A stretch of 62,560 nucleotides of DNA, counting the filler, from Hausera hauseri (lineage: Eukaryota): NCBI GenBank assembly GCA_046269625.1. It is 11 parts of 11 records of this genome, joined end to end, with 100 filler letters (N's around TTAATTAATTAA, not from the genome) between each part and the next. Parts side by side here need not be neighbours in the genome. Positions count along the whole stretch, not along the records: positions 56,882 to 62,560 come from JBJURY010207856.1; 10 more parts are not named here. One strand, written 5' to 3'. Below the pieces are notes generated by a model. The model did no database searches and was not told the DNA's origin. It was given only the letters and a program-made list of their open reading frames with translations. This document shows, one piece after another, positions 2,615 to 62,560 of the stretch (positions within the stretch are counted from its first letter, which is position 1; each line of letters starts with the position of its first letter). The position numbers were made by a program, and so were the translations under genes.

Positions 2615-2623
2615 TTTATCACA

Positions 2624-3281: not shown

Positions 3282-3316
3282 CTAAATAATAATATAATCT
3301 TTCCTCACATGATTTG

Positions 3317-3347: not shown

Positions 3348-3373
3348 GCTACAGTATAAAAACTGTTTCCATA

Positions 3374-3805: not shown

Positions 3806-3859
3806 ATTAAAAACCACAAAAATATTTCAGCGAATCAAAATAATGTACTCTGCACAATA

Positions 3860-4489
3860 ATGACAAACTACAAATACTATTCCCATGCTCACTCAGACAC
3901 TACTACCATGGAAGACGATGATAAAACGATTCAACTCATTGATGATGATGACGATGATGGTGGTTGTGACAATGTTGAAAGTTCAGACTGGTCGTGGTTG
4001 TTTGGCTACAGAAAGGACAAATCTAATGTCAAATTGCTGGAAGCGAAAACACAACCTGCCCAACAGGTATAAAAATGGAATTGCCTTTAGGACGATTATG
4101 ATGTCGATTGCCTAGAAACGAAAAAGAAACTTGCTCAGAAATCACCAGCACAAAACCGACGTTAAAAAGGCAAATGGTAATGATTGGAATACGTGAACGA
4201 AAATCAAAACCGTCGCGCCAAACATAGACACTTTTATCGAAGCGAATTTTTTGCAAGTATGAAATGCAATTTCTTCAAATATCCGTTCTCATTTCATTGA
4301 ATGATCCCGTGTTTTTATGCGCACCCAAGTACAGCTATCGCGTAAAATGGCTTTCGGGTGAAAATTTGGATAAACTTTCTGATGCTCTAATTCAACTAAA
4401 CGTGGATTTAAAGTTGAACGAAACGACCGTGCAACAGCAATCTGTCGTTTTACCGCCTCAGAAAACGAAATTGTTTGATTTTATCGGTC
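3860..4489 (+). pseudogene. Unknown Polinton ORF(s): acidic DWSWLFG region and ISLNDPV...LSDALxQLNxDLKL domain
   Basis: Both peptides are conserved in copy B (48438-49120). The acidic part is in the same frame as the TBP-like ORF. Confidence 0.55.
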
Positions 4490-8613: not shown

Positions 8614-8945
8614 TGTGCCATAAAAAACAACAGATGATGTGCTGATGCATGTGCGATTTGCACACCGATAAAGTTCAATTAATGAATATCCGATAGAAAT
8701 CGGTTAGTCTGTCAGCAAATATCGAGTTGTGTGTTGGGAAGTTCAATTCGAGCTAAAAAACAGAAAACTTGAGATAACATTTTAGTGTAATGCAAAAGTT
8801 AAGATTAAAATCAAAATCAAAATCAACTTAATAAATAATATAGAANNNNNNNNNNNNNNNNNNNNNNNNNNNNNNNNNNNNNNNNNNNNTTAATTAATTA
8901 ANNNNNNNNNNNNNNNNNNNNNNNNNNNNNNNNNNNNNNNNNNNN

Positions 8946-12807: not shown

Positions 12808-13053
12808 CGATGGCTTCAGCAGATTGTTGTCGACACAATCCGAGAAATTAAGATAATTGAATATTATTTATTTACCGTGAAAAATAATAAGTTTAAAATG
12901 ACAACGATTACCAAACCGAAATATATGATAACCCTTGTATTATATTTAAGATTNNNNNNNNNNNNNNNNNNNNNNNNNNNNNNNNNNNNNNNNNNNNTTA
13001 ATTAATTAANNNNNNNNNNNNNNNNNNNNNNNNNNNNNNNNNNNNNNNNNNNN

Positions 13054-16000
13054 AACTATGCCCTCCATTATCATCGGACCCTGTTAGCATAGGATCATTT
13101 GGGCAAATACCGAAGCCAAAATTTAAGTGGACCCCTACCGTTTATATGATGGGCCAAGCACTTCAACACGAATTTGCGATAATGGACCAGTTAACAGACT
13201 ATGTAGTACTCGGTTGCGACATATTGAAACAAATACCAGGCATGGAAATCGATGCGCATAATGGAAAATTACTTGGGCTTGCAACAATTAAGGGGACAAA
13301 AATAATAAAGGAAAAGAAATCGGGCGAAGTATGGATTCCGGTAGACGGAGACATTCCGCCCAGAACCGAAATGATAATTTTCCCACAGATTCATCAAGAC
13401 GAATATCTGCCAGTATATTTTGAACCTCAAGAGAATATCGATCCAAACCTCGTGTTTAGCAATATCCTATGTAGAGTAACGAAGGGACACATACCTATCA
13501 GATTAGTGAACAATGCACAAACCCTCGTAAGATTGCACGCTAACACTACTTTAGTCACACTTGCAGAGTATCGGCAGTAACAATAGAGGAAAAACCATAC
13601 AAGTGCGCTGAATTTCCATCTCACGTCGAAACCAAATTTTCTCCGGAGGCGTATTGCAAGTTCTACGAATTATTATGTAAATACCGTTCAATAATGGCAC
13701 AAAATGTGGAAGACATATGTAGAGCAAAAGCCCTGAGATTAACAATCCCATTAAGAAAGAAACGAGGCTCGAACGACGAAATCGATCTAGAGGAACAGAA
13801 AATGCTCAAATGGTACCCACCTCCCCATTCATTGAGGCTAGAAATAACTAAAGAGATAGAACGAATATTAAAGGCCGGTATAATTCGACCAAGCTACCGA
13901 TCATGGTACTCACCTATACTTATGGTTAAAAAGAAAGAAACCACGAAACATCGATTTTGTATAGATTACCGGGCATTAAACACGCTTATGATGAAAGACT
14001 CGTTCCCTCTACCGTCGGTAAAAGAAGCTTTAGACAGACTATCAGGAGCGAAATGGTTTACCACTATCGACTTACAATCGGGATTCTGACAAGTGGAAAT
14101 CGAAGAAGAAGATCGATATAAGATAGAGTTTAAAACACATGATGGCGTATACGAATTTAATGTTATGCCTTTCGGCATCACCACAGGACCAGCTATATTC
14201 ACTAGAATGATGAATAAGATGCTCATGGGACTCGATCATGCTTTCGCATATTTAGACCACGTAATGATAGCATCAAAAACAGAGGAAGAACACTTATAGG
14301 ACATTGAAGATACACTCTTGCGACTGGAACAAACAGGGTTGAAACTAAATCCAAAGAAATGTAAATGGGCACAGAACGAAGTATCGTACGTCGGACACAT
14401 AGTTGGAGAAGTAGGATCAAAACCGGATAAATTCCTGCTAAATAAAATATCCGATTGTATAGAACCGCAGAATCAAAAAGAGTTAAGACACTGGTTAGGC
14501 CTATGTGGGTATTATGCCACTTGCGTACCAGACAATTCGAAAATTAACGCGCCATTATATCGCCTACTCAAAGAATGAACAAAATGGAGATGGACGGAAG
14601 TGGAACAAAAAGCATTCGACGAAATGAAGAAAATCTTGACAAGCGAACCAGTTCTAAGACACTTTGATTTTAACGTACCATTCATCACTAAACAGGTCCA
14701 AGTAAAGAGGGTATAGGATATGAATTAGCTCAGAAGCGGGAAGATGAAGAACTAGAACACCCAACAGCCTATGGAGGACGCTCATTAAAGAAAGCAGAAA
14801 TGAATTATTCGGTTACAGAATTAGAAACATTAGCCGTAAAGAAAGCACTATGACACTTTATTGTCTATGTCTATGGACAAAAGATCATAATAGTGACCGA
14901 CCATAAAGCAGTTACGACATTGAAAGGACGAGCTAATAACCTAACACGTAGATTAAACCGTTGGATAGAGAAAATCTCACGATATAACATCGAATTCCAA
15001 TACAAACCAGGTAATAAACACGTCGACACCGAAGCACTATCGAGGTTAAAAACAAAAACAAGTGGGATTACCACGGTGAAAAAATTCAGCTCGAACAGAT
15101 AATCGAACGTCAAAGAACCCATACCCTGGATAAAACGATTAAGATCACCGCAGAGCAAGCGAAAGATAGGATTATTCAGCAAATTGTCGAGTTCATACAA
15201 AACGACAAAATACCCAAAGGACGACAACTAAAGAAGCATCTACAAAAACACGGACATAAATATCGCGCATCGAACCAAGATAATATCCTGTATTACTAAC
15301 GAAGCGGAAGGAATCTAACAGTTATTCCAAAAGGATTACGCGCCGAGGTACTCATGGCTGAACGTGATTCGTACTTAGCTGGACACATGTCTTGGAAGAA
15401 GACATTGGAGAGGATATTAAATAAATACTATTGGCCAAGCATTTATATCGATGTAAAGAATTTGGCAAGTGCTTGCGAAGTTTGCGCGATAAAGCAAAAG
15501 AAAACCAAAAGCTATGCAGCGAAATTAAAACACATAAACGTACCAGATAGGCCCATGCAAGCTATCTCTATAGATCTAGTGGGACCCTTGCCGAAAACTC
15601 ACAAAATAACACATATTTTAACATGCGTGGATCGATTAACGCACTTTGTCGAACTAGTGGCACTATTAGATAAAAAGGCAGGGACTTTACCCGACTCAGT
15701 GGTAAGGAAAATCATCTGTAGATACAGACCATCAGAAGAAATCTTAACGGATAGAGGACGGAACTACACGAGCGAATTATTCGAAAAAATTACTAAGATA
15801 TTTGAAACTGAACGTTTAACTACTACCGCATACCACCCCCAATGTAATGGAATGGTCGAGCGAATGAATTCAACAGTCATTCGTATACTGTCAACAGTAG
15901 TGGCCAAATACCAAAAGGATTGGGACGAATTTCTAGAAGGAACACAGTTCGCAATCAATATTACCCCACATCCAGCAACAGAATTTAAACCGTTCTTTAT

Positions 16001-16430
16001 AATGTATGGACGAGAGACAATTTTACCCGCAGATCTAGGTATGACACCGTACTAAAAAACCTTGAGGATTTAGAGCAAAACTTTGCCGAAGTCTTACAGA
16101 CAAGATTGCAAAAGTGTTGGGAAGTTGCAAAGACATTATGACTCGAATACCATGAACAATTTAAAAAACAATATGATAAAAAGACTAAGCCCCATGATCT
16201 GGAAAAAGGGAACTGGGTTAATATACATTACCCGGTTACGAAGAAAAGTACATGTTTGAAACTAACCCATACCGGAAGAAGACCATATGAAATCGTCCGC
16301 ACAACCCCAACCACGGTTTATGTTAATAAAAACGGTAAAGAGGGTCGTATCGATTCAAAGAGTAGTTAAAACAGATATAATACCAACAAAACACTACAAT
16401 CTAAGAAAGCGAGAAACAAAGACCTCGTCA
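13054..16430 (+). pseudogene. gypsy pol: protease, RT, RNase H, integrase
   Basis: VVLGCDIL; SWYSPILMVKKK, RFCIDYRALN, IDLQSGF, MPFGI, YLDH; TDHKA; GHMSWKKT...CEVC, IDLVGPLP, LTDRGRNY, TAYHPQCNGMVER; ends in HYNLRKR. Confidence 0.93.
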
Positions 16431-17806
16431 ATTGTCACCAGACTGGTATCTTACGTACAGATAATAGTAGCCTTATCGTTTATTGCTGTCCTAACGCCCA
16501 AGTCTAACGCCCAATATTGGGTCGATGAAACTTCGCTGAGCGATATATATGGAATCAGGAAAATCGGGCTAAAACCTTCACCGCCGAAGGAAGGAACTTC
16601 CAAACACAAAGACGAAAAATTTTTACGAGCAATAAAATTAGATTATTTTTCGCCAGAAGCCCCATGTGTTGGATTTAGGTTACCAGGACCACATGAGGGG
16701 CGAATCCAGACACTATTCCATGACCTATTAAGCCAAGCCGAATCTGAATGTAAATTCGAGACAGAAGATGATACAATTTGCTGCAACGTAGAATACGAAC
16801 ACTCAGTTATCGTTCATATTTGTCAGACTGTGATAATGTATACGCTGAAATAAATCTGAATTCACATTTAGTTGTGCCACGAACTTATGGAGATTACCTT
16901 AATATAGAGCTGGAAGATCTGCTCCAGTCCATCGACCCAATAAAACGGATGCTAGAAGAAAACAGCCAGTATAACGGGAAACCTAAAGGACGACTGTATC
17001 CAAATAATCACAGAAGGACGGTAAATTAAAGGATAAGTGATCATGGTTCAATTCGTAAAAGAGGACAAAGCAGCTTATAACCAACAATACTGTCAAATTG
17101 ACGCAGAAAGGACAAATAAGTGTTGTAAGTTACCTCAGGGATATAAATATAGAATTCGACTAGACTTATGAAGTTCGACCGAATCAGCCGAGTATTTACC
17201 TATGAAGTTATCAATTGTAAAATCCAGTTTGGGGAATTCCGCCCGAGATGACAACAAATAGAATTACGACTACAAGAATGAATACGACTACTTCACTGCC
17301 AACAGAATCCTCCAAACAAGTGGATTACCTCAGAAGGATCTAGAAATGATCCCTATAAAATATTGGACAAAACAACGTGAAATAACATTCGTTGTGGAGG
17401 AAGCACTTAATTACGACGTAGAAATAAGCTGCCAAACATTATATAACAACCAGAAAGTAACATTGAAAGTAACTATCGGATCAAATGCACCTACTTGAAA
17501 CCCAAAACAGATTACATAATACAAATAGGTGCAGAGAACAAACAAAGTAGAACATTTACGGTACAAACCTTAAACGAGATTGTATTAACAAAACCACTGA
17601 CTAATGAGGAGACGGAAGACGAAACTACGACTACCGCTAAAATAGAAAACTTAACTAAATGGACAACTTTGTCATTAATATCGATTATTGGAACGTCAAC
17701 GTTCGCTCTCATAACCTTTGTTCCGTTTTTCCATTTCATTACCAAAAACTGTTGTAATAAGCGTCATAAAATCACCGAGAGGGAATTAAGGGTGATGGGA
17801 CCGTAG
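16431..17806 (+). pseudogene. Env-like type-I membrane protein downstream of integrase, homologous to 11396-12807
   Basis: Signal-like IVTRLVSYVQIIVALSFIAVLTPKSNA|Q right after YNLRKR. Cys domains PCVGF...ECKF...ICCNV and DCIQI...YCQID...KCCKL. FN3-like CTYLKPKTDYIIQIGAEN, Thr/Glu stalk, TM WTTLSLISIIGTSTFALITFVPFFHFI, tail KNCCNKR. Frameshifted. Confidence 0.78.
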
Positions 17807-44231: not shown

Positions 44232-46799
44232 ACCTGGCCGTGACAAATTTTGACAGACTATTGAACATGGAACATGATCAATTCATCGAAAAGCGTATAT
44301 GTTGTAAGTAGTGTCCTGTGTGTCTGCATGGATTCACCTCGGAAACAACGTGGGAGAAACATGTGACACTATGCAGACAAAATTCATCGGGAACAACAAT
44401 GTATATCGTGTCCGTCCAAAAGGAACTGAGGTTCACTGATTGGTTTAAAACAGACAGTCCGGCATATGTAGTGTATGCCGATATCGAAGCTATCTTACCA
44501 CGGCACAACATATGTGACTTAAAAACATGTTCCAATCGCCGTCGATATGTTGGTTATCTCAATAAAAGTCGGAGGTCAACCACAATATTACATTTTTCAT
44601 GGATGAAACTGCGTACGCGATTTCCTGCATCAGTTGGAAACAATAGTAGAAACGGAAATCGCACCCCTGTACAGTAGAAATGTCAATAAACCTTTGATGT
44701 GGTCAAATGAATATGAACGCCTGACATTTATGGCCACAGATGAATGTTACCTCTGTTACAAAATATTACCGTTTCATGCACAGGAACGGCTCATACCAAA
44801 TCACGATCATTTTACCGGTCGATATCTCGGAGTCTCATGTAATTTATGCAATTTTGCAAGGCATGTGCGGCCATTCCTATCGGGGGTATTTCATAACTTT
44901 AGTGGTTATGATTGTCATTATATTTTGAAATGGGTAATAAACGGATTTTCTCACTGGGAACTATCCGTAATTTCGACTACGATGGAGAAATACCTGTCAC
45001 TGTCTGTACGTATAAACCGGTTTCAGGAACGATTCCTTGATTCGCTGCAATTTCTCAATGATTCTCTGGCAAAGCTGGTGAATGCCTTGCCATATGTGCC
45101 GCTAACAATGACTCAGTTCCCTGTACATATTGCGCATAGCAAGGGCATATTCCTGTATGACTTTGCGATATCGTACGAGCGGCTCCAGATAGCAGATGAA
45201 TTACCACCGCAATAGCCGGTATCACAAAATATGAATATCACAGAGTGCAGTCCTTTTGGACAAAGCTCGATTGTAGAAACCTGATGAAGTACATGCTTCC
45301 CTATCTGAAATTAGACGTGTACCTGTTAGCTGATGTGTTTTACATCTTTCAAGCTAAAGCTTTAGCAGAAGATTGGCTGGAGTCACTCAACTTTTACTAA
45401 ATACCCGGAATGAGTTGGGCATCAGCTCTGATGTCATTGGATCAGGTTATTGAGCTGTTGCAAAACCTGAAAATTTACCGAATGTTGGATGTTGGTATTT
45501 ACGACGGCATGGCATTTGTCAACAAGCATCGGGTCCGTGCTACCGACACCACATCACTGCTGTATATTGATATTAACAACCTGTACGGCTGGGCGTTTTT
45601 GCAACTGTTGCCGTACAGTTCATTTGAATGGGTAGTCGACAAGCAGGACCTGGACACAATACCCGAAAATTTGTCTAGAGTAGACACAATAGCAGGAAAC
45701 AGTTCAATCGGATACCTGATGGAAGTCGATCTCGTGATACCGGATGAGCTGCATTACTTTCTGGATGAACTGCCGGTCGCAGCAATTATCCAATGTCCAC
45801 CCGGCTGGAAGGTGAAGAAGTTGTTTATGACGCATGTACCCAAGCAAAATTACATATTTCATTGGTGTCTGTTGCAATTTCGGTGTACGCGTCACACGGC
45901 TACATCGCACAATCCCATTTGCTCAGGCTCCCATATTCAAGGCGTACATAGATAGAAATACGGAGAAACGAACCGCAGCTTGTACAAAGTTCCAAAAGGA
46001 ATACTACAAGATGAAAAACATTTCCCTGTATGGAAAAACAGTAGAGAATCTGAAAAAGTGGATCAATGTACGCCTATGCAATAGGGAAAAGCGGTTGGTC
46101 ACGTACACGAGCAAGGAACAGTTCAGGCGGTCAATTCACGTTGTTCGTGGATTGGTTGCCGTGCTTTTAAACAGAGAAGAAGTCATACTGGTCCGGCCAA
46201 GTTATATAGGACAAGTGGTGTTGGATCTGAGCTAGTTGCTAATGTATGAGCTGCAGTATCGCGATTTGGCACATTACCGTCAAATGTTCGGCGGCGTAAT
46301 CAAGACCAGTATAATTTCCGGTGACACGGATAGTTTTTTCTTGGAACTGGAAAACGTCAATCGCGAAAAATTACTGCAGCAAATGATGGAAGACGTATAC
46401 TCTACACATCCAATTACCTATAGAATCATCCATGGTAAACGCCACCACAAACAAAATCGGCTGATTCAAGAATGAAAGTGAAGGTCGGATTCAGTATAGG
46501 GAATGGATATTTCTACGACCAAAGTGTTATAGCCTTTTAACCGTCTGTGGATCTAAAATGCGCGCCATAAAGTTCAACTGGCGCAGACGAAAATAAACCA
46601 CGGTGATTATTGCCGTGTCTATGAAGAAAAAGTAGAAGGACAACAAAAGGCTGTTGTGTCACAAACGATCATCCGATCGATTGCGCACCAGCTGTATAAG
46701 CTGTACAATGCAAAAGTCTCTTTATGATGCAGTGATGATAAGCGAAAGTGGGTGGAGCAAAATGACAGTAGAGCGTACGTACATTTTCGTTTGAAATAA
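44232..46799 (+). pseudogene. Protein-primed family B DNA polymerase with C2H2-like finger and endonuclease-VII-like insert
   Basis: CPVCLHGF...H...C, VVYADIE, CYLC...HDHFTGRYLG..CNLCN, FHNFSGYDCH, FLDSLQFL, KGIF, YIDINNLYGWA, KMKNISLYGK, IGQVVLDLS, GDTDSFF, LRPKCYS and DDKR. Confidence 0.95.
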
Positions 46800-47199
46800 A
46801 ACACGCATGAATTCGGTGCTGATAATACAGACAGATCAAATTACTGTATTACAGTATTAAATTAATTTGTGTCATAAAATCGGTGAATGTACATGTTCTT
46901 TAACACAATAACTAGATTTTCTATAGAGCTGCAATCTTCTGTTGTTGTTGTCATCAATGATATTGACGCTAAATCTTCTTTTAATCCAAAATCACTTGCT
47001 GTTTTCGCATCAAGCTCACTATGAAGTTCTTGCCACCATTCTACCATGTTTGAAATTTATAATCCATCGAAATTTTGCAATTGCTTCAGTTGATTAACTA
47101 TTTTCATGATGATTAATGTTATTTCCTACCCGTATTTATAGTTTTTGAATTACTCAAATGACCAATACAGTGGACCTTATTTACGGAAAGAAAAAAAGA

Positions 47200-47709
47200 A
47201 ACAGAGAAATATATTTATTTATTTGCATTAAATATAAGCAATACAAAGCAGTAAATATTTTTGTAAGCACAATGTGGTCTACCATCATGATACGGACATC
47301 AAATATTGTCAGGTACCCTTACCAGCGAGTTGCTCGATGTTGTTGAATACGTCATCATTCGCAACTCGGGAAAATGTGAATGTGTTTGTGTAAATTTTTA
47401 GCCGTCAATTTAATCTTTAATGTAAAATATTGTATTTTCAATGTCAAAACAATCACAAATGTCTCGCAAGATACATGATACGCAAAACACTTAATTGCCT
47501 TTGTGCAACTAAAGTCCATGATGACGTCGTATGAGATATCCATTGGTAATTTTTGCCTTTTCTGTCAACTGATTCCACGTAACGGCCGGCTTGAATACGT
47601 ACACAAACGCTTTGAAAATGTTATCGACGTCCACAATGCATAATTCCTTTATCATGTACCGGGAATTATCATCTTGGAAAGCTTCAATATCTATAAATTC
47701 TATGGCCAT
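47200..47709 (-). pseudogene. Putative DEDD-type 3'-5' exonuclease-like protein
   Basis: FIDIEAF (ExoI-like DxE), IKELCIV, FKP..W..L....TNGYL...HHGL. Stop at 47509; the 3' end is uncertain. Confidence 0.5.
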
Positions 47710-47784
47710 TACTTATTATATACAAAATTATTTTTTGTTTATAACACAAACAAACAAACTAATTATTTTTATTATGATCACAAA

Positions 47785-48256
47785 TCAGTAAACATAGGTG
47801 GTTTTTTTCATATCACCAAAGCCAAATTATTTGCGTTAATTTCGTGTTGCTTCATTGACACAAAATAGTTCCCATTGTTCCGCTGACATTACACTGAATT
47901 CCGCCTCTTCACAGCGGAAGAAAACCGATTTCTGCAATTGCACAGCCTTTCGCAAAAGCATACGGTTCCCCGTATTGGTTTTTCAACAACACCTTAACTT
48001 CACCACGAAAGTCAGAATCATTGACACCGCCACCCGCAACAGTCAGTCAGACCTTTTCCAGTCCGCTTTTCAATAAACGTTGGCCGTAGTAACCGGGTGG
48101 AATCGCCAATCGAATCCCAGTCGTTACGTATTTTATTGTGCTGTACGAAGTTGTCGTAGTGATATTGGAAAACACATCGTAGCCCGCACTGCTTGCCGTA
48201 ACACATTTTGGTACACTAGAACTTTTAGCTGTCAAAATAATCTTTACATCATTCAT
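47785..48256 (-). pseudogene. Trimeric dUTPase
   Basis: SAGYDV, TGIRLAIPPGYYGQ...KSGL, then after a stop GGVNDSDFRGEVKVLLKN, AIAE and a degenerate GFG motif. Confidence 0.9.
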
Positions 48257-48437
48257 TATCATTATTAATGAAAAACCCATTAATCATGTATATTTACATT
48301 CATTGTTAAAGAAGACGAAAATTAAAACATCAATAACATTTATTGATAATCAGAAAGTGCTTCGGATAAACGACGAATCGGGCTTTTGACACCGTTCTTT
48401 TCTTTGTATCTCTGCAATTCAATGTTGAGTAAACACT

Positions 48438-49120
48438 TTAATTCATCGGGCACATTAGACAATTCACGACCGGTAGTTTAGATTTTGCGGCCCGTAAAAC
48501 TACATATTTCTGTTGTAAGGATGTTTCTTTCAATTTTAAGTCCATGTTTAATTGACTTAAAGCATCACTAAGTTTCGTAACATTTTCACTCGATAGCTGC
48601 TTTACACAATATCTGTACTTGGGTGTGGTCAACAACACCGGATCATTCAACGAAATCTGTACGGGCGTTTGCAGATTATGCATTTCATACTTTAGAAAAC
48701 GTCATCGTCGGTAAAAATGTCGGTGTTTCATACGTGGGCTTTAATTTTTGTTTCTGTATTCAATTAGTCATTCGCGCTTGTCGTTTTAATTTAGGCTTTT
48801 CTATTTGATGGACAGGTTATATTTTCGGTTCCAGACAGTTGACATTAGAATTGTTGCTACCAAGCACTTGTGACAAATCGGAACTCTCATCATCATTACC
48901 ATTGAGTATTAGTGCTCTATCTTCTGTTAACATGCGCTTACCACCAATAATTCTCCATTGCCATTTTAATATCGCTTTTATTAATTGTTGGACAAGTTTC
49001 GGTTTCAGACACTTGTCATTGTCATTCTTGGCACCAAACAGCCACGACCAATCTGTACTTTCGTCATTGTCAGATGTATTATTGTTGAGCAGAATCATTT
49101 CCTCGTCGTTTTCCATCGTA
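48438..49120 (-). pseudogene. Unknown Polinton ORF(s) homologous to 3860-4489
   Basis: MENDEE...DWSWLFG and ISLNDPVLLTTPKY...LSDALSQLNMDLKL. Confidence 0.55.
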
Positions 49121-49189
49121 GTAATGTCTGAACGAATATGGTAGTGGTATTTGTAGTCCTCTGACCAAAGTCTATTACTTTGATTTAGT

Positions 49190-49645
49190 AAAACACTTAT
49201 ATGGTGTTTAATTTGATTAATAGTCGTCTCATAGTTGATTGACCAAATTCCCAATATGACAATTTTTCCACTTCTAAACATATTGGCACAAAGCGGACAG
49301 AATAGTGTTAGTCGCTATGCAGGGAACAGTTCAAGCTCATAAACACATTCGGCAGCCATTGCTAATTTGTGCAGAATAATTGATTGTGGTAGTGGTGGTG
49401 AGAAATCTAACTGAGTCGTTACTGTTATTGGTTGCATTTGGTCAATTACTATTTCCGAATGGTAGATGTTTGTCATTTGTGATTGGTTTTCAACAATCCA
49501 TAATACAACACTTTCCCGATGGAAATATGACGCACGTAATATCCATAAAACATTTGTGAACATAATAACTCCGCCTCCATTGATTAAACGGCAGTGCATT
49601 AATACACTCAGTAATATGTCCGCAGTAGTTGATATTAGCTATCAT
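49190..49645 (-). pseudogene. Minimal TBP-like protein, copy B
   Basis: MIANINYCG...TCVIFPSGKCCIM, frameshift, then QMQPITVT...LHKLA...YELELFPA*RLTLFCPLCANMFRSGKIVILG. Confidence 0.85.
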
Positions 49646-49709
49646 GATTGATTGAAACAATGTTTATGCTGCATCTATTTATATGCGTAGGTGATTATAA
49701 ACAATATAT

Positions 49710-50371
49710 ATGAAAAATGCATCACCAAGGACAGAAAGCTGCAGAGTAGTGCCATTTTCCAGATTATAGGCCCCAGTGGAAGTAGAAAAATGTACTTTGT
49801 TTGCAAATTGCTGCAGAACTACCGTGAAATATTCAAATCGTCGCTGTTCAATCATATTTTCTGGCATCAGGGCAGTGGTGATGATAAATAGTGCGGTTTG
49901 AAACATCAGGAATTTTGTAAATTAAAATCCGTTACGGTAATATATAATTTTGATGAGAACTGATCTGAGAGATTATGCAACGGTAATGGTATTATCATTG
50001 GCGATTTATTTCAGGAAGACGCAAAACAATCGGACTTCAACAACCTTCACCGTGGTGTGACGGTTATTTTTATTAAGTAAAACATGTTCCATTAGAGCAG
50101 ACAATATCGAACATGAAATCTAAACGTAAACTATTTGGTGTTGTTTAAAATTCGTCGTGATCAGACTATCATTGATTATGTTGCACGACAAGCATTTCCT
50201 TACAATCGAGCCTACTTGATAGATACATATTATGATTCTACGAAAAAACCGCATGGATTTCTGTTTATTGACTTTACACAACAGTGTTCCAATGACATGT
50301 GTGTACGAACAGACATTTTCAATCAAAGAGGTGTATGTGTTGACAAACAAATTCGAAAATCGACGATATAA
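49710..50371 (+). pseudogene. Packaging ATPase, copy B
   Basis: IFQIIGPSGSRK, IIIGDLFQ and LVLFKIRRDQ...VARQAFP...KPHGFLFIDF...VRTDIF. Confidence 0.88.
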
Positions 50372-50373
50372 TT

Positions 50374-50917
50374 ATGACAATAAAGAGGAATTTCCAAAAA
50401 ACAATTGGTATAGGTAAACCTACCAAGCGGATGTCACGCAAGAAACGTGTATCAAAACGAACCGATGCACTCATGCGATTAATTAATTCTGTGCTTCGAA
50501 CAACAGCAGCAGCAACTAGATGCAAATTACCTTCACATTGTCAACGGTTATATGCAATTACGTCTCATCAGCATCAATACGTCAAAAAATGTGATTTAAA
50601 CGTAGTCAGCCGTACTTCATTGCTTTGCTCAAGGCACCTAGGAGACATAAGCGAAACATGCTACGATCATTCCTGCAGTTTGAAGTAGACGATTTAATGG
50701 AAATTTTGTAAAATATCGTTGTCGGTAACGTTGACATTGGTAGTGGGAAGCGAAATTTACTAAAGTATCGAACACGACACATAGACCTTGCCAACGCTTG
50801 TAGTAAACGAGTGAAAAGAGAGATAATGTACCAGCAAAAAGGAGGATTCCTTGGTACAATTCTACCACTTGTCACGTCATTACTGGGTGGACTCATTGTT
50901 GGAACAGTTCAGTATAA
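50374..50917 (+). pseudogene. K/R-rich small protein plus PW-like protein, copy B
   Basis: MTIKRNFQKT...SRKKRVSKR; QPYFIALLKA...YQQKGGFLGTILPLVTSLLGG. Confidence 0.65.
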
Positions 50918-50920
50918 ACA

Positions 50921-52080
50921 ATGACAGTAAATATATGGCGATTTGCGATATGGGTGTTCGGTTTTTATCTTTCTGTCCCAGTTTACCTTATCTTTCATTT
51001 ACATTTCCTACAAACTGTTTTAAAGCAATCAAAACCGACACCATCGCCAAGAACGATGGGCTACGTGTGGTTCAATACACGTTATCCCGTCGGATATACT
51101 GATGTCGACAAACTGACAAAGACTGTAAAACAGAGTCGGCGACAAACCCAACGTTTGTTAGGAAACCGTTAGCATGAAACCTAAACAAACCTATAAGAAG
51201 GCGGTTTCTAACTGGTGCATACAGTACTGCCGGTGTAAATAACGTATGGAAAATAGATCTGATAGAAATGATTCTCAACACCAGCACTAACCATGGGTAT
51301 CGGTACGTGCTGACATGTATTGATGTGTTTAGTCATTTTGCACGTGCAGTTGCTGTAAAATATAAATCCGGTAAAGAGATTGCTGACGCTGTTCAGACAC
51401 TGATACAACAGTAACAACAACCGAATCATTTACAAACGGATTTGGGTAAGGAATTCTACAACGCTCACGTTGCAGAGGTCTTGAATCTTTTCGGCGTAAA
51501 CTACTACTTGGTGTTTTCCTAATACAATGCTGCACTCGATTTAACTGACCATTGCGCGGTCTCCTAAACAATTTCTTTACAAAGCAAGGCAACAAATCTG
51601 AGTAGATGTACTGTCAGATATTATTCGTACATATAATCATTCGACACACTGTGGCATCATTGGATTACGGTTGGTGGATGTAATCGATGATTTGCACATG
51701 TGGCTTTACCAAAACCCAACACAACAACAACGACAACTAAACGTCCCAAGTACAAAATCTGTGATTACGTACGTATTTTTAAGTTGCATACAACACCATT
51801 CATTAAGAATTCCAATCAGAACTGGAGCGATAAGGTTTTCCAAATTTCGGCAATCAACACAAAACAAACATCTATTATGTACGTTTTAAAAGATGAAAAT
51901 GATGATGAAATACGTGGCAAATTTTACGAAAAGGAACTGCAAGTACTACCGAAATAACCTGGTGTGTATTGTATTTATAAATTTATGCGTTTATGCGACA
52001 AAAATTCGAATAAACAATATCTCGTCAAGTAGCACGGCTACACTACACCAAGTTGGATTTTTGCATCGCAGATTGAGTGA
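50921..52080 (+). pseudogene. Polinton c-integrase with chromodomain, copy B
   Basis: VGYTDVDKL, WKIDLIEM, YVLTCIDVFS, LQTDLGKEFYN, NWSDKVFQI and GKFYEKELQ. Confidence 0.9.
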
Positions 52081-53133
52081 CGAGCATTTATTTGGTACTT
52101 GGTAGTAAAAAATTATCAGAACATAACAACAAAAATACCGCTGAACGGTTTATTATGGCGTTCAACCAGCCACTCGACTTACGCCAGGGAGCCTTTGGCG
52201 GAATTCACATTTACATTTTAACTAAAAACAATACGTGGGAACAGTGGAATATACTATACTCTACTAACACAATTTCCTGCGTCTAGTCGTTTGCAGTTAG
52301 TCCGAGACTCTAATGGAACATTTCACGTTTGCAATTAAAAGCGGCAATATTTCCCGGTTTACATTTTTATTTAAACAATCATTTGGTGCTAAAACCCAAA
52401 CAACCGAGTAAATTGCAATTTAAATTATTAGCCGACGCTCAAGCATGGGGTTTTCAATCTGTCAATGTGCGCTCGAAAGATTTACAGCTAGGTGGACATA
52501 GCATAATTAATGAAAAATTGAACTTTTCCGAAAGCACCATGAAAACCACCGATATTACAGTGAACTCGCAAAAGACTGAATCATTCTTCTACTCTCATAC
52601 AACAGTAACTGTTTTTCTTACGGAAACGGAAACAGAATTGTGCGCAACCATCTAGATTGTATTTAAATTGGCTTTGAAGACATTTGAATTAAACTCTGTT
52701 GGTCGTATTTTGTTTACACTACATGATAATGTTACATATTTTGTCTTTGATGAATTATTGGCACGAAATCTGGGTTTTAAGAAACGAGAGTTCGGTCAAA
52801 CCGGCGGCGGACGGCCCATTGTTGCTAAACACAAACCACGTCTCTACTAAACATTTCATCCAATCAATATTTTAACGGATCTAAGCCAACCCTTATATGT
52901 TGGCGTAGACCGTAAATAACTATTGGCTTCTATTTGACTAGATTCGGACAAGTACAAAATACTGGGCAAAACGGCTCACGTAAATATAATCCGGCTCATA
53001 TATTTATCGTTGTCTCACAATGTTGTAAACATTATTTCCTTGTATATAGTAGACGAATTTTGGAAAGCCATTAAATTTCTGTTTGGAACCAAGACACATT
53101 TGATGCTACATTTTCGTCGTCGTCGTCGATAAT
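52077..53133 (+). pseudogene. Minor capsid (penton-like) paralogue 1
   Basis: SIYLVLGS...NQPLDLRQG at the start; NILTDLSQPLYVG...IYLSLS...ISLYIVDEF...THLMLHFRRRR at the end. Confidence 0.78.
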
Positions 53134-53177
53134 AAACAAACTGTGTCATCACTATCATCATCATCATCATCGAGATC

Positions 53178-54242
53178 ATGAGTATTTGCATGGTGTTGCC
53201 GAGCAGCAGTTGTCCGACGCCTCGTCCGAACAATTCAGACATTGAATACGTTGTGGATTGGAACAATCCTTTGGATTTATTTGAAAAATGGGAGGTTGCA
53301 CTGACAGAATTTAACTTTTCCTACGCACCGGTGACATTGGAAGGTCGTACGATAATAAAGTTCAACAAAACTGTTATTAAACCAAAACACATTCTTGTCT
53401 CCTAACACTTACTAAAAATAAAATAAAAGTTAGAGAATCGGCCATTTGCACGAATAGTACAAAATACGATTTTTATTTTAGGGAAAAACATATTTTATGG
53501 CAGATTTTGAATTTACTGTTACCTTTGAGTCCTCGGATATGGCATAGTAATTTGGATTCAAAAATACAGAGTAAAAATATAAACATATTAAAAGTGAATA
53601 TGTATGTTGCTTTAAGATTATTTCCCGTATATTACCAGACAACGGTGAAATTTACCTATGCAGCCGAAAGAGTGTCAACATCATATATATATATCGATTG
53701 GTGACAATGTCTACTGCGATTCTGTAGCACATCTCTCTCAATAATTTTCCAATCAAAAGTACAAGGAGATGTTTAAAGTTTTCGAGTCAGATGCAAGTGG
53801 GTACATTAAATTTGAACTGGCTAAGAATTTTGTCGACATTTCATTAGACAAAGCTTAGGCCATAATATTGGGTTTTAAAAAACAGCGGTTTGAGGAACTG
53901 AATACGAAAACGGCTGCACATGTTGCAACATTTACACCCAAATTGAAAACGGAACTAAGTCAAATGTACATTTACGTGAATGTCACCGAACCGATTTTGG
54001 TCGGTGGAGTACGTGTACCGCTACTCCGTGTAATTTATCCCGAAACCAGCAAGTATACTGCCGGTGACAATGGCGCTGTCAAGCTCGATAATCCAATATA
54101 CCTACATGTGGCATCTACATCTATAAACAATGTTGAAGTGAATATCCGATGCGACGCGGGCTAACTTATTGAATTTCCGTACGGTACCACAGCCAGTCTA
54201 ACTCTTCATTTCCGTCGAATACAACAACAACAACATGATTGA
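53178..54242 (+). pseudogene. Minor capsid (penton-like) paralogue 2
   Basis: MVLPSSS...NPLDLFEKWEVALTEF; QMYIYVNVTEPILVGGVRVPLLRVI...NPIYLHV...INNVEVNIR...LTLHFRR. Confidence 0.85.
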
Positions 54243-54596
54243 TTCTGAAATCGTTTCCATTTACAGTAAACCCCAGCAGGGCAGAGAACTGCTGTATTTT
54301 GTTGGTAAAAAGTATGACCCTGGATGGTTGCGTACATTGGCACGTTTAGCATTTCCGCTGTTGAAGCGTATATGGACAGTGGCAAAAAAAGAGCACAGGC
54401 TGTAATATATGAAAACAAATAGATTTTGCCATCGCTAAAGCAACACGTTTCGACAGAAATTAAAAGCGCTTTACCGGGAGTCGTCGTATCAGTAAAAATA
54501 CAATTTATTGACAGTAGTTTGAGAAAACGAAAACATGGCAGATCAGCTAGCTTTTAAACTATAAACCAACGTCGTCGTCATACGATTTTCGATTGA
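54235..54596 (+). pseudogene. Polinton small protein with amphipathic helix (putative membrane-active/cement protein), not in the ORF track
   Basis: Hand translation: MIDSEIVSIYSKPQQGRELLYFVGKKYDPGWLRTLARLAFPLLKRIW, frameshift, then basic tail RKRK...RRRHTIFD. Lies between penton and major capsid, as is usual. Confidence 0.6.
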
Positions 54597-55803
54597 TGGC
54601 ATCCGAAAAATCTAAATTGTGTATATTTGACAAAGACGTGCCACAAGTTGTTATTGACAAAGCATCATTTGAGGAAATCTACCCCGTTGATTTGGTTTCA
54701 ACTGACGAGAACATTGACATTCAATTTAACATTAAGGCATCGGAAAATTAATATTTCGATTTGATCTATAAGCTACTCTATGTAAAAGTTATTGTAAAAG
54801 GGATGCATCAACAGTTTACGCTGCAGCAGACACTATCACGTCGGCCAATTACCTTTTTCTCGTACTGTTCCAGGAGGCTTCAGTGACTCTAAACAGCGTC
54901 AAAACCGAACGCAACGCCAGTCTATACAGTATTAAAGCACTCATTAAAACGGCTTTGAATTACAGTGCAGACACGAAAATGACTCATTTGACAAAAACCA
55001 TTGGATATGACGCCACTGAAGCAAACCGTTAGGCATGGGCGGCATAATGAAAAGCACTGACAATGTGTGGACCGCTGTACTTTGACTTTTTTGATAAGCC
55101 GCAATACCTACTGCCCGGTGGTAAAGCCATGAAATGCTCAAACGTAGTCTTTTAATTGAAAACAGCAGTTGCAAATATCAAACCCATACTAAAAATTACC
55201 GAGGCGCAATTATACGTACGTCGTGTAAAGTTAGAACCATCTGTACTTATGGGACATCGGTTGGGCTGGGAAAAACAAAATTCCTGTTACCCAATACAAC
55301 GTACAAAACTCGTGTTTTACATCATAACCAAAAGTTCAATTGCGTTTTGTAAAGATGCACTATTTGGCGCCATGCGATTGCAGAAATCTATGCTCATTAC
55401 ATTTCAAACGACTGTTCAACAAACGGGCAGTTATACCACCGATTCGGAAACGTTTCCACATAGCAATATGAATTACATCAATTTGGGTCGAAATGCAGAT
55501 TTCGTTGAGACATACAAGCAGAATTTCGATACCGGCAATTATGTTTGCACATATATGCAATCTATCGTGCGAAACATGGGTTTTTTGTACATAAATGTCA
55601 ACAATGAAATGTCGATGGATTTGTACAAGTCCACCTATTCATTTTTCACCTTTTTCCTGGCTCCAGATTATTACGTTGAACAGACTCAACTACCTGTTGG
55701 GAAACGTGCGATTGGAGTTTCACTTTGCTACTACCGTGATGCATTTTTATGGTATATTTGATGACTATGTTTAAATAAAGAAAATTAAACCGTCATTGTA
55801 TAA
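54596..55803 (+). pseudogene. Polinton double-jelly-roll major capsid protein
   Basis: MASEKSKLCIFD..PQVVIDKASFEEIYP...IQFNI...YFDL...LYVKV; GPLYFDFFDKPQYLLPG; LKITEAQLYVRRVKLEPSVLMGH...YPIQR; GNVRLEFHF. Confidence 0.85.
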
Positions 55804-55864
55804 ATAAAATCCGTTGTGAGTCACCTTTTCGTTGTACTATGAAGTAATTTGTTTGATTACTATT

Positions 55865-56299
55865 ATGATTAAATCACATTCTTTTACATTTAGTTCCACT
55901 GAGCTTTGTCACTACGGAGAAGTGCTCTTGGGCGTGAAATATCGTGACGTGTTTGCACTGAACTGTATGCCGCGTGATTTGCGAACATCTTGCTGCTTTA
56001 TTGTCAATCCCCACACTTCATCGTTGCCAGGCGCACATTGGATTGCTGTGTACGTCCATCCGACCAACGTCGTCAGAGTATTCTATTCGCTCAGATTTTA
56101 CTGTTCGTCATTGTTAGATTCTCACATTGAACGGCAATCATTATACCATGTTAAATATAATCGAGTTCACTATAAATATTCAATGACTATACTATGTGGT
56201 TTACATTATAATCACTTTTTTAAAATATATATGGTTATTATTTTATTTCTGTTGTTGTTTTCTTGCGAACAAATCATGAAAAATAATATGATATTTTAA
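55865..56299 (+). pseudogene. Adenain-like (C5) cysteine protease, degenerate
   Basis: IVNPHTSSLPGAHWIAVY...FYS...LCGLH. His and Cys are kept; the expected Asp (FDS) and oxyanion Gln are substituted. Confidence 0.8.
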
Positions 56300-57126
56300 T
56301 TAATGTGAGCTTCACATTTGGTGGTACTCATTACTTTGAAGGCAGACGGTGTCACCTCCTTGTGACTAGTACTCAATTATGACCTTGTGCGCCGTCGTCC
56401 TCGTCGTACAAAACGAACGCATTTACAACGATGATGATGATAATTATTTTGACTTTTTAACAATATATTTTTTCGTTCGTTTGTTCGTTCGTTCGATGGC
56501 ATTTTTCACCCCGACCCATTCATTGGTCTGGGCATGAGGCGGCTATAATATGAAAAATTTCACAACTTATGTGCAATGTATTAGACCCATTTCCATCACC
56601 ATCAGACTTGAACATGGGGAATTTTTACCCGAGCGAAATATCCCTATTGATTTTTCCACACGTTCCCATGGTCTGACCGAGTTGCAACCGTGTCCATAGC
56701 AATTGCCAATATCGATTTACCCCTTGTACACGTTTTCTGCGTACTAGCAATTTGTTTTTTGTTACGCGTGGCGCATTTCTTNNNNNNNNNNNNNNNNNNN
56801 NNNNNNNNNNNNNNNNNNNNNNNNNTTAATTAATTAANNNNNNNNNNNNNNNNNNNNNNNNNNNNNNNNNNNNNNNNNNNNGCTCGGACTCCACTCTACA
56901 CTTTCTCCTATCCATTCCCGCTCAAATTTTGCTTCTGGAAAAAGTTCGTTTTTTTCTTTTGCATTTCCCGGCTTTGTCTTTTGCGACACAGAAAAACCGA
57001 CCGCACCATTCAACTCGGCGTTGTCGATTTGACAGAAAACCGTTCATTGCTAGGCAGCAATGATTCTATTTCCTGTGTATATTCCCCCCTGGCCCAGACT
57101 CGCCTTTTTCCCCTACTTATCAATAT

Positions 57127-58600
57127 TTATATAAATTTATATAAGTGGAAATTCCCACAAATTCCTGCAGATATCTGAGTCCTGATTTTGTTTTTCTGAA
57201 ATGATTTTATTCTTTTATTCTTTGTCGATGTGTATTTCACAACACTGTTGCCCAAGAATTTTCGATTAATATTTCCAATAGTAGGATTGTCTTGCTGCAT
57301 GATATCTCGCTGACACAAATGTTCCATTAGAGGATTACAATAGCACGTTGCTTTGTCCATATCAGGAACACAGTAGCTTCGTTCCGGGTCACCTTTCGGG
57401 CATGGATTGTGAAGTGTTCCACACGGTGAACCTTGCCATTGTGATATATTGTTGAGATAAACGACGGGGCCTTGTAACTGAATATTTACCCCATTGACGA
57501 GTACCTTCTGAATTGCTACCTGGAAACTCGGTTTTAATGAAATAAATGAACCCAGTTTTTCGTTTGTAGCCCCTCCAAAGAATAGCGGTTGATTTCTCAT
57601 TTGGATTTGCATTAACAATCGACGTTTAATAAAATTGGGAAAATTATTCAAGTTGAGCGATACGTATTTTGCTGCTTTTAAAACACTAACGAAGTTCCAT
57701 TTTCCAATATTGATTTGTTCGTGTGATATTAGCTTCGTAACCCCAATTTGAGTTTTGCAGATGACTTCAATGTAATTTTGATTCAATGATACGTGGAGGA
57801 AACAGGGATATTTCTCTTAATTGTACAATGTAAAGACGAGTACACCTTGTCCACTAGTCGGAAGGAAATTCAAGTCGATTTTCAATCGTCGATTTAGCTG
57901 GAGAGGTTCAGTGTCTAATTTGGCATAAGATGTTTCTTTAAATTTCCAAATTGGTGAAACAAATTCTTCACATGTATGACCTTGAAATCCTGGACTGCAT
58001 TCAGAATTGTAAATATTTCCGCTGATGACTTTACAGCTGCCTTTATTTTTACATGGCTTGTACATATCGCAGTAATCTCTATTGTCACTTTCCTGATTCG
58101 TGTTTTCATTGTACTCGTTTGGATCTTCAATGACCTTCATTTCAGGAGTAAGGTCAGCGTATGAACACATTGGCTTAATGTTTGAGCTTTCTGTTATCCA
58201 ACTGGCATCTTGATTTATGACATATTCTTTTACTCCGTTCCAGAGGTTATTTTCAATGACTTAAGGCAACCAATTAACCCATCGGTTACGTAGTTTGTGT
58301 GGCTCAGCATATTTGTTTTAATTCCTTGAGGTTGACCAATGGAAAACATTGAACCAGTATCCAATTTTGTCATATGTTTCGGACTTTCACCATACTGAAC
58401 ATCTGTATCATCAATAACGAGTCGTGCGTGACGTTCGAATCTTTCAGCGACGATATTATGGGGTTTACCATATGTTAAAGGATTTTGACTTCGTAACAAT
58501 AGTTCTCCGCTTCCGAGATCAAATCCGAATTCAACGAGTTTGTCTTTCATAATTAACGTCAGAAAATCTTTTGATCGCCACGAATCAGCAAAATAGAAGT
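57127..58600 (-). pseudogene. Laminin-G/EGF protein fragment (agrin/perlecan/pikachurin-like)
   Basis: DFLTL...VEFGFDLGSG...GLIGCLKSL; EGF CDMYKPCKNKGSC...CSPGFQGHTCEE; FKETSYAKL...GVLVF; LFFGG; WQGSPCG..NPC. One frameshift and one in-frame stop, no evident introns. Confidence 0.8.
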
Positions 58601-58955
58601 TAATACCATCTTTGGCTTTTATTTCGTTTTTTTTACATTTCAAAGCTCAAATTGCGTTATCTTCGCTTTGTTAACTAAAATATTTCCACATTCTTATTCG
58701 GCTTTATATTTTGTACGTATCTCTGATTCATAGTAAAGTTTATTTCATTCCACCACCTCTAGAATTGTAAAATTTCAACGTCTGATTATTCGATGACCAT
58801 TCCGATTCAAAATCCGTTTGACAACATTTATTAATGAATTTATTCAAAGCCTGTATATCCTGATTTCTACGAGAAATCACTTCACGACATCCAAATGCTG
58901 ATGAAGGAAGTAAATATTTTTCATACGACATTGCGTGCAATTATAGCAGAAAATT

Positions 58956-59189
58956 TGTATAAGACCGTCTAACGGCTTTCAGCTTTCGATGAATCATGGT
59001 TATTCCCGCTTTCCCAGTTTTCCGAACCCTGCCAGGGATCATCTATTCATCATTTTGCGCACTCATTCAACCATTTTAACCTTTAACAACCCTTATTTTT
59101 ATACAACCAATACACACAGTGCAACCAACATGAACACACATACATTCATATATACATTATATATAATTTTATTATATACATTATATACA
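58956..59189 (-). repeat. Putative 3' LTR (234 bp) with upstream PPT
   Basis: On the - strand, purine-rich GGGAGAAGTATAGGGG is followed by TGTATA...TATACA inverted termini. Confidence 0.55.
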
Positions 59190-60712
59190 ACCCCTATACT
59201 TCTCCCGTTGAGGTTCGACCGGATTCCCCAACTAGTCATTCTGGTTCCAACACCTTTATTCGCGGTGTCCTCAAATTTATCTTTTGATAATCCTTTGATT
59301 AGATTCGTCCCTGTTAGCTTACTAGGGGCTGCGGCCGTTCCTCTGTTCGGTAAACTTATCCAGTCGGTTCCACTGCGTCTAAACATTGGCTCGCCCAGAC
59401 TCGTCTTGCATTCCTTCAATATTGTTGGCTCAGTCGAGTTTGCCAGTAATACTCTGGTGAGTGGCATCGCTAGTCTTGGCATGTTTTCGTAGATGACAGG
59501 TAATTCTTGCATGCATCTTTTCTCTTCTACGTTGATCGACACGTCTCTTTTTTCGCATTCGTAGGTTAATAGAACTTCTTCGGTAACTCATCCAAAGACA
59601 CCCTCTTTCATCGGTATAATCGATTATGCCAATTCTGGGTTGGAGTGAATTAAAGCCAGTTTGGTTCTTATGACTTCAGTATCTAATCTGTAGTCATTTG
59701 TTATCATGTTGTAATATAGTTCCGCTATTCCGGTTTGCCCTTTGTAATAGAAATAGTCGTCTCGATTTTTGAGGTAATCTTCGATCCGCACATCTTGTGT
59801 TTTTAAATCGTACGTTTTCATATCAATTTCTGTTTCCGCTACAAAAAATGCTTCGTAGTTGGTGGCATCAATAACTACATCGCAGTGTGATAACATATCC
59901 TTTCTAATAAATTTTAACACGTGCACATCTGATATTAGTATTGTCAATGTGGATTGTTCTATGACATCTTCCCTTGATCTGGTATTAGCATGTAATTTTC
60001 CCGAATAACGCTGTACAGTGGTCTCATTAAATTTTAATTCTTTGATTTTGATGAAATTGCAATCCTTTTTAGAGGGCGGATTCTATACGATGACCGAACT
60101 TCGGAATGTGCAGGCACTATCATTAAAGTGGCATTTCTGATTTTCGGTGAATAGTTTGGTAACGCTGTGAAACATCGCTTTTATGGATCTTAACTCGGTT
60201 TCATAAAAATCTACAACTAATATTCCTCCTTCTATTCCTTTCCCTGTGTCATATTCTCCTCCGACACAATAACCGGTGTGCATGTTCAATTTTCCCACTG
60301 CCACTTTGTAGGCTGTAATTATTTTTCCTTCTTGGGCTTCCAATTCCATGCAGTCCCAAACCATTTTACCGGTTGACCGGGCTTCTAAGCAATGTTGTCT
60401 CTCCACGTTCATTGGTATCAATGGTGTGGTAGGTTTTATTATTGACGAATGGTCGTACATATTACCACAAAGAAATATGCTGCGGGATCTATGTATCATA
60501 CATTCTGCTGCATCCATTGAGATTAGCTCCCATTGTTGATATAGTATGTATTTCTTCTCTATTGTCTGAAGCTTGAGGGGCCTCGCATCCTCACATGTTT
60601 CTAAGTCCATCAAGAAATATTTCTGGCCCACCTTGAATTTGTCACAGTCGTATATGGTGACTGCTCCCATCTGCTTCACTAACATCATTATTGTTAGTAG
60701 ATTGATTAACCA
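59099..60712 (-). pseudogene. Chuvirus-like (class III) fusion glycoprotein, env-like
   Basis: Three ORFs in one frame with three stops. Signal WLINLLTIMMLVKQMGA|VTIYDC; ETC, LYQ, EC.I.RSR...CGNMYDHSS, C....TG, GYCVGGEY; EVLLTYEC...CMQELPV...PLTRVL...EC...PMF...W. Confidence 0.8.
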
Positions 60713-60759
60713 ATTCGACTGGTTCTCTTTACTCCAAGAGATGTTTCGTACTATGTCCT

Positions 60760-62560
60760 CTAAGTTATTGGTACTTTTCGCATTGTCTTCTTTTCAAATA
60801 GTTTAGCCCATTTTATTTCTTTAGGTATCCTTCTCGCCGCTTTTCTAGCTAACTCGATTGTCTTGTCGAACTCATTTTCTCGGAGAGGATTAGTTTTTAC
60901 AGCTAAATAAATCAAAAATTTCCTTAATTCTTCCATCATATTATGCGTCATGATTTTATCAATTACTGTTTCATCAGGAAGAGTACTTTTAGATAGTTTG
61001 AATTGCGACGTTTTCATTGTCCGTGCTATATTATATATCAGTCTTTCTTTTTCGGATAATATGTCACCTTGTAGTCCGGTATAATTAAGTATTCCTATTA
61101 AATCTTTCATTAGCTCAACTAATTCTTCATTATCTTAGCTTGGAGTTGGTACTGATAATTGTCTTAGTTCTCTAATCAGATCTGCATTATAATCCACTTC
61201 TTTTATTTTCCTTAATCTTCCGACCGGTCGTTTCGGTTTCGTTGGTTGTAAGGTTTCACTTATGGGTACTAGATTTTTATTGTATTGCGGTTTGTCGTCC
61301 TCAGTTTGTAAATATTCGAAGTACATTGCGGCGTCTTGAATCCTCATAATTCTTCCAACGTAATGTTCTGTATGTGTCTTCCTTATGGCTTCGTCTTTGG
61401 TTTGCTCACTAGCAATTATTGATATTATTCAATTCTCTTCGTGGGGTATAATCCCTACGTCTATTAAGGATTCTAGCTCGCCTAGTATCCTCCCTCTGAA
61501 ATATAGTCGATAACTAACTCTTTCCCTGTCATTCTTATTCATTATCCGCTGCTTTATATCCGTAACCGTAGTACAGGTAGTACACTCAAATTCCTCGTCA
61601 TCCATCCACTCGGACGATACCTTTACTCTAAGTTCCGCTTCTGGTTTACTTCTTAGCAATTTAGCGTATTTTTTTATTAGAAGTTTGGGTACAGCGCTGT
61701 AGGCGATGTTTTCACTGGATAACTTAGTCAAAGTCGGAATCAATTTCCTTAACCTTTCTTCACTTATGTTTACTTTCAATGCACAGCTCAATTACTTTTC
61801 AGCTAGCGCAGGATCGAATAGCATTTGCATGTCGAATTTCGTTTTCTGTGCACCAGTAAGTGACTCATAAATTTGTATTGGAGTTCTTTGACTTTGCCTG
61901 GTTAGACCTTGGAGATATTCATCCCATTCGGCTTCATTATCTGCGTCAGGTAACTCGTAGTTCATTAGTGCCGCATGTCTGACCTGTACTCTTTTGCGTA
62001 ATTCTCTTATCTGCGGTTACAATGTTTTCATTATGGGTATCCTAAATCCGTCTCCATTTTTGCATGATTGTTGTATTAGTGTTATTACTCGGCACATTTC
62101 CTCTGGTTGCGTAAAGGCTTTCTCTTGATAGCTGGTTATTTCTGCGTTTCTGTCTCTTTGCCATCTCTGTACGAATTCCATTTTGTCGTTCATTTCCGAT
62201 TCCTTAAGGGAATACTTGTTTTTGTAAACTTCTTTTTCTCTCAGTAATTCGTTTAGCTCGCGTTACCTTTTCTCGGAGCGTAACCGGGTTTCTTTTACCA
62301 GACGTATTCGATTTGTTAGTCTTTCGGCTATTATCCAGTCAATTTCTGCCATTTCTATTAATAATAATATTAATTTGTGAATTTGATTCAATACTTCCGC
62401 GTTCGGATCTATTGCATTCATTACCTTGCCGATAAACTTGGCTTCGTCGGCCGTCAACTAAAGATCCTTCCTAATTTCCGTTAGTTCGGCGTGGCAATGT
62501 AAGTCGAAGCCTAGCGTCCTTTCTGCTGGATTCTTTAAGTATTGTAATGTTTGTGCCAGG
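60760..62560 (-). pseudogene. Degraded polyprotein of unknown function containing a ubiquitin-like domain (~61432-61625)
   Basis: ORFs ending at 62457, 61791, 61347 and 61110 share a frame. LRVKV...TTVTDIKQRI...YRLYFRGRILGELESLIDVGI is ubiquitin-like. Confidence 0.55.

Follow-up and report, generated by a model that had tools for sequence, protein, structure and literature searches.

A decayed, internally deleted retroelement of probable GAG-ENV-POL Ty3/gypsy type in Hausera hauseri, with a ubiquitin-like domain ahead of a chuvirus-type fusogen

Burro and GYPSM1 are giant gypsy-like LTR elements of planarians, typified by thousands of copies (Jurka 2007 and Grohme 2018, cited in Arkhipova and Yushenova 2019, PMC6431247). 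As described in that review, their polyprotein carries gag, a Ubi2/SUMO-like motif, BCL-2, an env with matches to mononegavirus fusion proteins, and a protease, and decaying fragments with stops and frameshifts are reported from a related species. A protective effect of the Burro1 IAP region on planarian stem cells has been reported (cited in PMC13465017). GAG-ENV-POL elements of Ty3/gypsy with a gB-type env have been described from flatworms, nematodes and bryozoans (Chary and Hayashi 2026, PMC13524379); the words 'ubiquitin' and 'Bcl' have no occurrence in the main text and seven supplement files of that article. In the literature consulted on Bcl-2 or ubiquitin-like (Ubl) domains in LTR retrotransposons, the passages of PMC6431247 are the only element-specific account found.

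The window analyzed here, 62,560 nucleotides of Hausera hauseri (GCA_046269625.1) with filler included, is a composite in which N spacers separate 11 short contigs. The feature under study is encoded on the minus strand of the final contig (JBJURY010207856.1, 56882-62560). Judged from its sequence, it is most probably what is left of a Burro/GYPSM1-type GAG-ENV-POL element of Ty3/gypsy (Metaviridae), dead and with an internal deletion. As the contig contains no gag and no pol, this class assignment rests on relatives at 27-32% identity. The copy is inactive, having nine stops, a frame break, no anchor and no pol. The features on this contig, all on the minus strand, are as follows.

62559-60763, minus strand: upstream frame, 599 codons, 6 stops
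61825..62559, minus strand: first ~245 codons of this frame, charged, helical and unassigned to any family; 3 stops; continues past the contig end
61423..61797, minus strand: conserved helical and Ubl accessory module, located with an HMM from 5 relatives
61402..61638, minus strand: ubiquitin-like (beta-grasp) domain without GG; AlphaFold2 pLDDT 77-90; one stop before the last strand
60763..61134, minus strand: helical region where relatives carry a Bcl-2-like domain; W..xGGW motif absent; pLDDT mostly <50
60763..60793, minus strand: frame break; the glycoprotein frame overlaps the one upstream of it in a different register
60793-59177, minus strand: glycoprotein frame, 539 codons, 3 internal stops
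60653..60712, minus strand: internal signal-peptide-like hydrophobic stretch (hydropathy peak, residues 28-47)
59245..60706, minus strand: fusogen ectodomain of chuvirus/Monjiviricetes type (gB-like, class III), interrupted by 3 stops and lacking its C-terminus and anchor
59190..59206, minus strand: polypurine tract, 13/15 purines
58956..59189, minus strand: putative 3' LTR, 234 bp, with good support for its start at 59189 but an uncertain far end
57130..58646, minus strand: LamG-EGF-LamG-EGF segment (agrin-like), intronless, broken; best PDB match agrin, E 1.3e-14

Both long frames are decayed genes, as follows from the stops they contain: three in the glycoprotein frame, where 500 shuffles average 37.5, and six in the upstream frame, where shuffling gives 43. 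The initial annotation had read about 540 codons of chuvirus-type glycoprotein directly upstream of the purine tract, and a match to PF24664 (E 3.9e-27, 94.9 bits, cutoff 27) bears this out. Residues 30-494 align with profile positions 6-458 of 653, so that about 195 C-terminal positions, the anchor among them, are missing, and homology to relatives stops by tblastn at ~59245 (59210 for one of them), about 40 nt before the purine tract; the C-terminal deletion proposed earlier is thus real. Of the clade-invariant cysteines, 13 of 14 are retained. Past the TG that opens the putative LTR, the glycoprotein reading frame continues as far as 59099 and encodes a hydrophobic tail.

No in-frame Met precedes the signal-like stretch of the glycoprotein frame, in agreement with the earlier observation, and this is accounted for by the signal being internal to a single polyprotein. 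The further proposal that the signal continues from the upstream frame holds for relatives, in that the stretch spanning the frame break is one uninterrupted frame in P0013, P0154, P0007, P0004, P0005 and P0019, but in the window's copy the two frames are out of register.

Within the 599 codons of the upstream frame, Pfam profile searches at E<=10 detected neither a gag nor a pol family, and likewise no MATH, BIR, ankyrin or dUTPase domain, the latter four being absent from P0154 as well. Contig 56882-62560 ends at 62560 with the frame still running, and on it no gag, pol, paired LTR or TSD was found. For the first 245 codons of the upstream frame there are no matches in relatives, and a Pfam match of coil type is weak (E 0.015). 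Searches of both frames against NCBIfam profiles gave no match, and phmmer against PDB gave nothing useful. Word-index protein searches with the two frames gave nothing at E<=0.001, which reflects their low sensitivity, since a full HMMER search did find relatives. No relatives were found in a viral-contig collection, and no tRNA was found in the window. In a comparison with sequencing runs by shared words, one run contained 0.45 of the words and no RNA run was listed, which carries no weight for copy number, LTR pairing or expression.

What the upstream frame does hold is a ubiquitin-like domain, as first proposed for this degraded frame of ~1.8 kb. The Pfam match to ubiquitin lies under the Pfam cutoff (E 0.0032). 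The AlphaFold2 model, however, aligns with FAT10 in the VIA fold search at Z 11.9, with an rmsd of 1.8 over 76 residues, and also resembles SUMO, OASL and ISG15; the model of the corresponding part of P0013 has a ubiquitin fold as well (Z 12.3, rmsd 1.5 over 73). On these predicted structures a real ubiquitin fold in the upstream frame is confirmed, with fold support covering the Ubl part alone, as Ubl matches filled the results. An HMM of the helical and Ubl region, built from five relatives with the window excluded, matches 61797-61423 at E 2.5e-14 and 48 bits, the best of 300 shuffles reaching 6.9 bits, and P0154, held out of the profile, scores E 2e-29. The module occurs in six of the 22 relatives scanned, five of those six by construction of the profile, and gag lies ahead of it in P0013, P0007, L001 and P0154. 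Aligned pairwise, the upstream frame follows the gag-to-env stretch of P0013 collinearly, at E 1e-10 and 21% over 352 columns, and it does likewise with L001 (E 3e-7).

A Gly-Gly near the end of the Ubl is seen in only one of seven carriers, consistent with the earlier remark that the window's domain shows none at its C-terminus. With no GG conserved, a ubiquitin-type processing role, which had also been suggested, is unlikely, and the domain would be an integral Ubl rather than a cleavable tag.

Five of the 22 relatives scanned (P0004, P0005, P0013, P0019 and L001) have in common a Bcl-2-like helical segment with a terminal GGW motif, immediately ahead of the signal. A profile from three of these sequences, searched against PDB, has Bcl-xL or Bcl-2 in all of the best 60 of 106 rows (E 0.0016-0.005); Pfam Bcl-2 matches in the relatives' segment are below cutoff, and the ESM Atlas gave no usable match for the Bcl-2-like part of P0013. 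The corresponding helical region of the window aligns weakly to P0013, and the Bcl-2-like profile scores there not above shuffles (hhalign probability 0.07%). A Bcl-2-like domain is therefore not detectable in the window's copy and is not claimed for it. Among relatives, the Ubl occurs by itself in P0154 and along with the Bcl-2-like domain in P0013, P0019 and L001, and the two are missing from L002, P0009, P0015 and P0018, so that the accessory cassette is modular.

The 3' side of the element is marked by the purine tract followed by TG at 59189, a combination equalled by 9 of 5114 TG[TA] sites in the window and by no other site on the minus strand of contig 56882-62560. Of the LTR-like unit initially delimited as TGTATA...TATACA, the start thus stands, but the end at 58956 is no better than chance, 13 of 43 TGTATA sites having a TATACA within 100-1000 nt. 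Alternative ends are at 58852 and 57076, which would make the LTR ~340 bp or ~2.1 kb long. The words TATAAA and AATAAA occur within 58956..59189, and there is no second copy of this unit in the window. The TATACA at 57076 sits just past the LamG-EGF segment (57130-58646, minus strand), and that segment may be a retrocopy, flank, or, if the LTR is long, LTR cargo.

Relatives were obtained by an HMMER search with the fusogen of 1.84 billion representatives, with 249 matches at E<=0.001, of which 150 were listed. Among the 17 best (25-32% identity), an aspartic protease lies downstream of the fusogen in 11 and a reverse transcriptase in five, and six end within the fusogen or soon after it; an integrase or DUF5641 ahead of the fusogen is found in none of the 17. 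P0154 (4029 aa) displays the order capsid, zinc knuckle, Ubl, env, PR, RT, RH, INT; L002 is one 2693-codon ORF in the order gag-env-PR-RT-RH-INT; and L001 is ordered gag-Ubl-Bcl-2-like-env. The fusogen tree (FastTree, midpoint-rooted, SH-like support) includes 114 of 155 sequences, 41 having been dropped for a span outside 330-620 aa. In it the window's fusogen falls within a clade of 21 (SH 0.951) that holds all 14 of the 114 proteins in which motifs flag either a downstream PR/RT or an upstream zinc knuckle. This placement, together with PR and RT downstream of env in relatives, indicates that pol belongs 3' of env in this lineage, contrary to the initial expectation of pol upstream, and the window's missing pol would consequently be a deletion between ectodomain and purine tract.

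Several features of individual relatives were seen along the way. In L001 an in-frame stop at 3058-3060 divides gag-Ubl-Bcl-2-like from env with the frame unchanged, as a readthrough signal or a point mutation. Between gag and env, P0012 displays by eye a DEDDh-exonuclease-like pattern (residues ~115-295, no Pfam match) and P0019 an insert of about 600 residues without assignment (~340-950). P0003, P0004, P0007 and P0154 carry several retropepsin-like domains per polyprotein, and in P0003 and P0154 one also follows the integrase. P0006 (HBK71150.1) has the polyprotein order gag-Ubl-env-pol and is on deposit as a Flavobacteriaceae MAG protein; its likely source is animal DNA that ended up in a bacterial MAG during binning.

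In intact relatives a single polyprotein reads capsid and zinc knuckle, then the accessory region, the internal signal and the class III fusogen together with its anchor, and after these PR-RT-RH-INT. The accessory region is helical with a Ubl and often a Bcl-2-like domain. The internal signal may thread the fusogen into the ER without a start codon of its own, and the parts could be released by signal peptidase and the element's protease. The Ubl may be an integral interaction domain, most likely directed toward the host ubiquitin-proteasome system or cell-death control, and the Bcl-2-like domain, where present, could act with it on host proteostasis or cell death. In the window's copy, a deletion would have fused the fusogen ectodomain to the purine tract with loss of anchor, pol and 3' ORF, the frames decaying thereafter; its gag would lie beyond 62560.

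A pol-less alternative can be put in two forms. In the first, which is unlikely, the locus represents a satellite of Burro-like elements that retained gag and the Ubl module together with a shortened env and spread with helper enzymes, possibly with an LTR reaching to 57076 and a captured intronless agrin-like LamG-EGF segment, and possibly in a non-planarian host; the hydrophobic tail of the glycoprotein frame could then once have stood in for the lost anchor. In the second, which is also unlikely, it is a natural non-autonomous derivative (gag-accessory-truncated env-PPT-LTR) multiplied via the pol of a helper element. The junction is clean, fusogen homology stopping so shortly before an intact purine tract, and a gypsy pol at 44% to P0154 is present on another contig of the window (8953-11296). 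Against a natural derivative are the nine stops and the frame break, the single copy in the window, and the loss of the anchor, which would make the env unusable.

A chimera is quite unlikely; here the purine tract and LTR would come from another element, which recombined with a Burro-like fragment or cut it short. The 234-bp unit is short for Burro, and no DNA links the window's LTR to intact relatives, L001 and L002 having no LTR pair. However, the purine tract and LTR are on the same strand as the frames, at the expected 3' position, and a continuation of env does not turn up beyond them on the contig.

A BEL/Pao framing, as in the initial annotation, would make this an 'Anakin'-like element with env after integrase, and this is very unlikely and already largely refuted. 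The fusogen is of the same Pfam family and sits directly before PPT and LTR, as a 3' env would, but the 599 upstream codons hold no integrase or DUF5641 and the Ubl module links the region to gag-env-pol elements. The BEL/Pao-type protein P0050, with DUF5641 before env, is moreover far off in the fusogen tree, at a distance of 3.97 against 2.1-2.4 for the nearest gag-env-pol relatives. Finally, a plain endogenous chuvirus glycoprotein fragment is hardly tenable. The contig does lack gag and pol, but the upstream frame is collinear with retroelement polyproteins, the fusogen groups with these and not with stand-alone glycoproteins, and PPT and TG are present.

Other contigs of the window carry further elements. 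Gypsy pol occurs at 8953-11785 (plus strand) and 13002-16853 (plus strand), at 44% and 35-39% to P0154 respectively, followed on both contigs by a signal-peptide-like stretch, as at the relatives' 3' ends. The post-integrase tails of relatives have no significant match on these gypsy contigs, which are therefore not shown to belong to the fusogen element's family. A BEL/Pao fragment (DUF1759, Peptidase_A17, integrase, DUF5641) with no env seen is on a separate contig at 28534-32620 (minus strand). Degraded Polinton/Maverick-like pieces lie at 1-4489 and 44232-56781 (DNA_pol_B_2, E 1e-7; ATPase-like and protease-like ORFs by eye), and the stretch 1-4470 recurs in inverted orientation at 48477-53011 (74-87% identity). 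At 5158-8703 (minus strand) is a 1181-codon ORF without interruption, with ankyrin, FN3 and RA matches, which is presumably ANKFN1/wide-awake-like.

As regards the deleted GAG-ENV-POL copy, the dead fragment itself adds little, its domain order being already published for Burro/GYPSM1. Of more use is the helical and Ubl module, which seven or more divergent gag-env(-pol) sequences have in conserved form, the window's included, and which now has fold support. The intact relatives are better suited than the window's copy for studying the roles of the Ubl and Bcl-2-like domains.

Compared with described systems, the Anakin BEL/Pao elements of mosquitoes (Dezordi 2020, PMC7642597) are alike in having a chuvirus-like glycoprotein inside an LTR element, but differ in their BEL/Pao pol, in the absence of a Ubl from that article's text as consulted, and, by proxy of P0050, in a distant position in the fusogen tree. 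The bdelloid LTR retrotransposons (Rodriguez 2017, PMC5408684) are likewise gypsy-like elements that capture accessory domains; theirs are DEDDy, GDSL or an F-type env, placed as ORF3 after pol, and the article's text, as consulted, has no mention of ubiquitin or Bcl. Closer are the HSV/gB-type 'errantiviruses' of PMC13524379, whose Platyhelminthes C1a group has the gene order and chuvirus-like gB-type env of the window's relatives. Six Smed C1a env rows given there share motifs by eye with the top fusogen relatives and may well be Burro elements. That survey, as it describes itself, kept intact elements only, unlike the decayed copy here.

The closest likeness is to Burro/GYPSM1, by the published description in PMC6431247 rather than by Burro sequence. 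The window's copy differs in having no env anchor, no pol and no detectable Bcl-2-like domain, in having no MATH, BIR, ankyrin or dUTPase in the part of the element seen, and possibly in LTR length, which may be 234 bp against the kilobases implied for Burro in that review. The initial reading of an enveloped LTR retroelement thus stands as to element type, but the accessory polyprotein taken to be unusual follows an order already known from Burro/GYPSM1. As in those elements, a Ubl lies upstream of env, and a mononegavirus/chuvirus-like env follows the accessory region behind an internal signal, here with the frames out of register.
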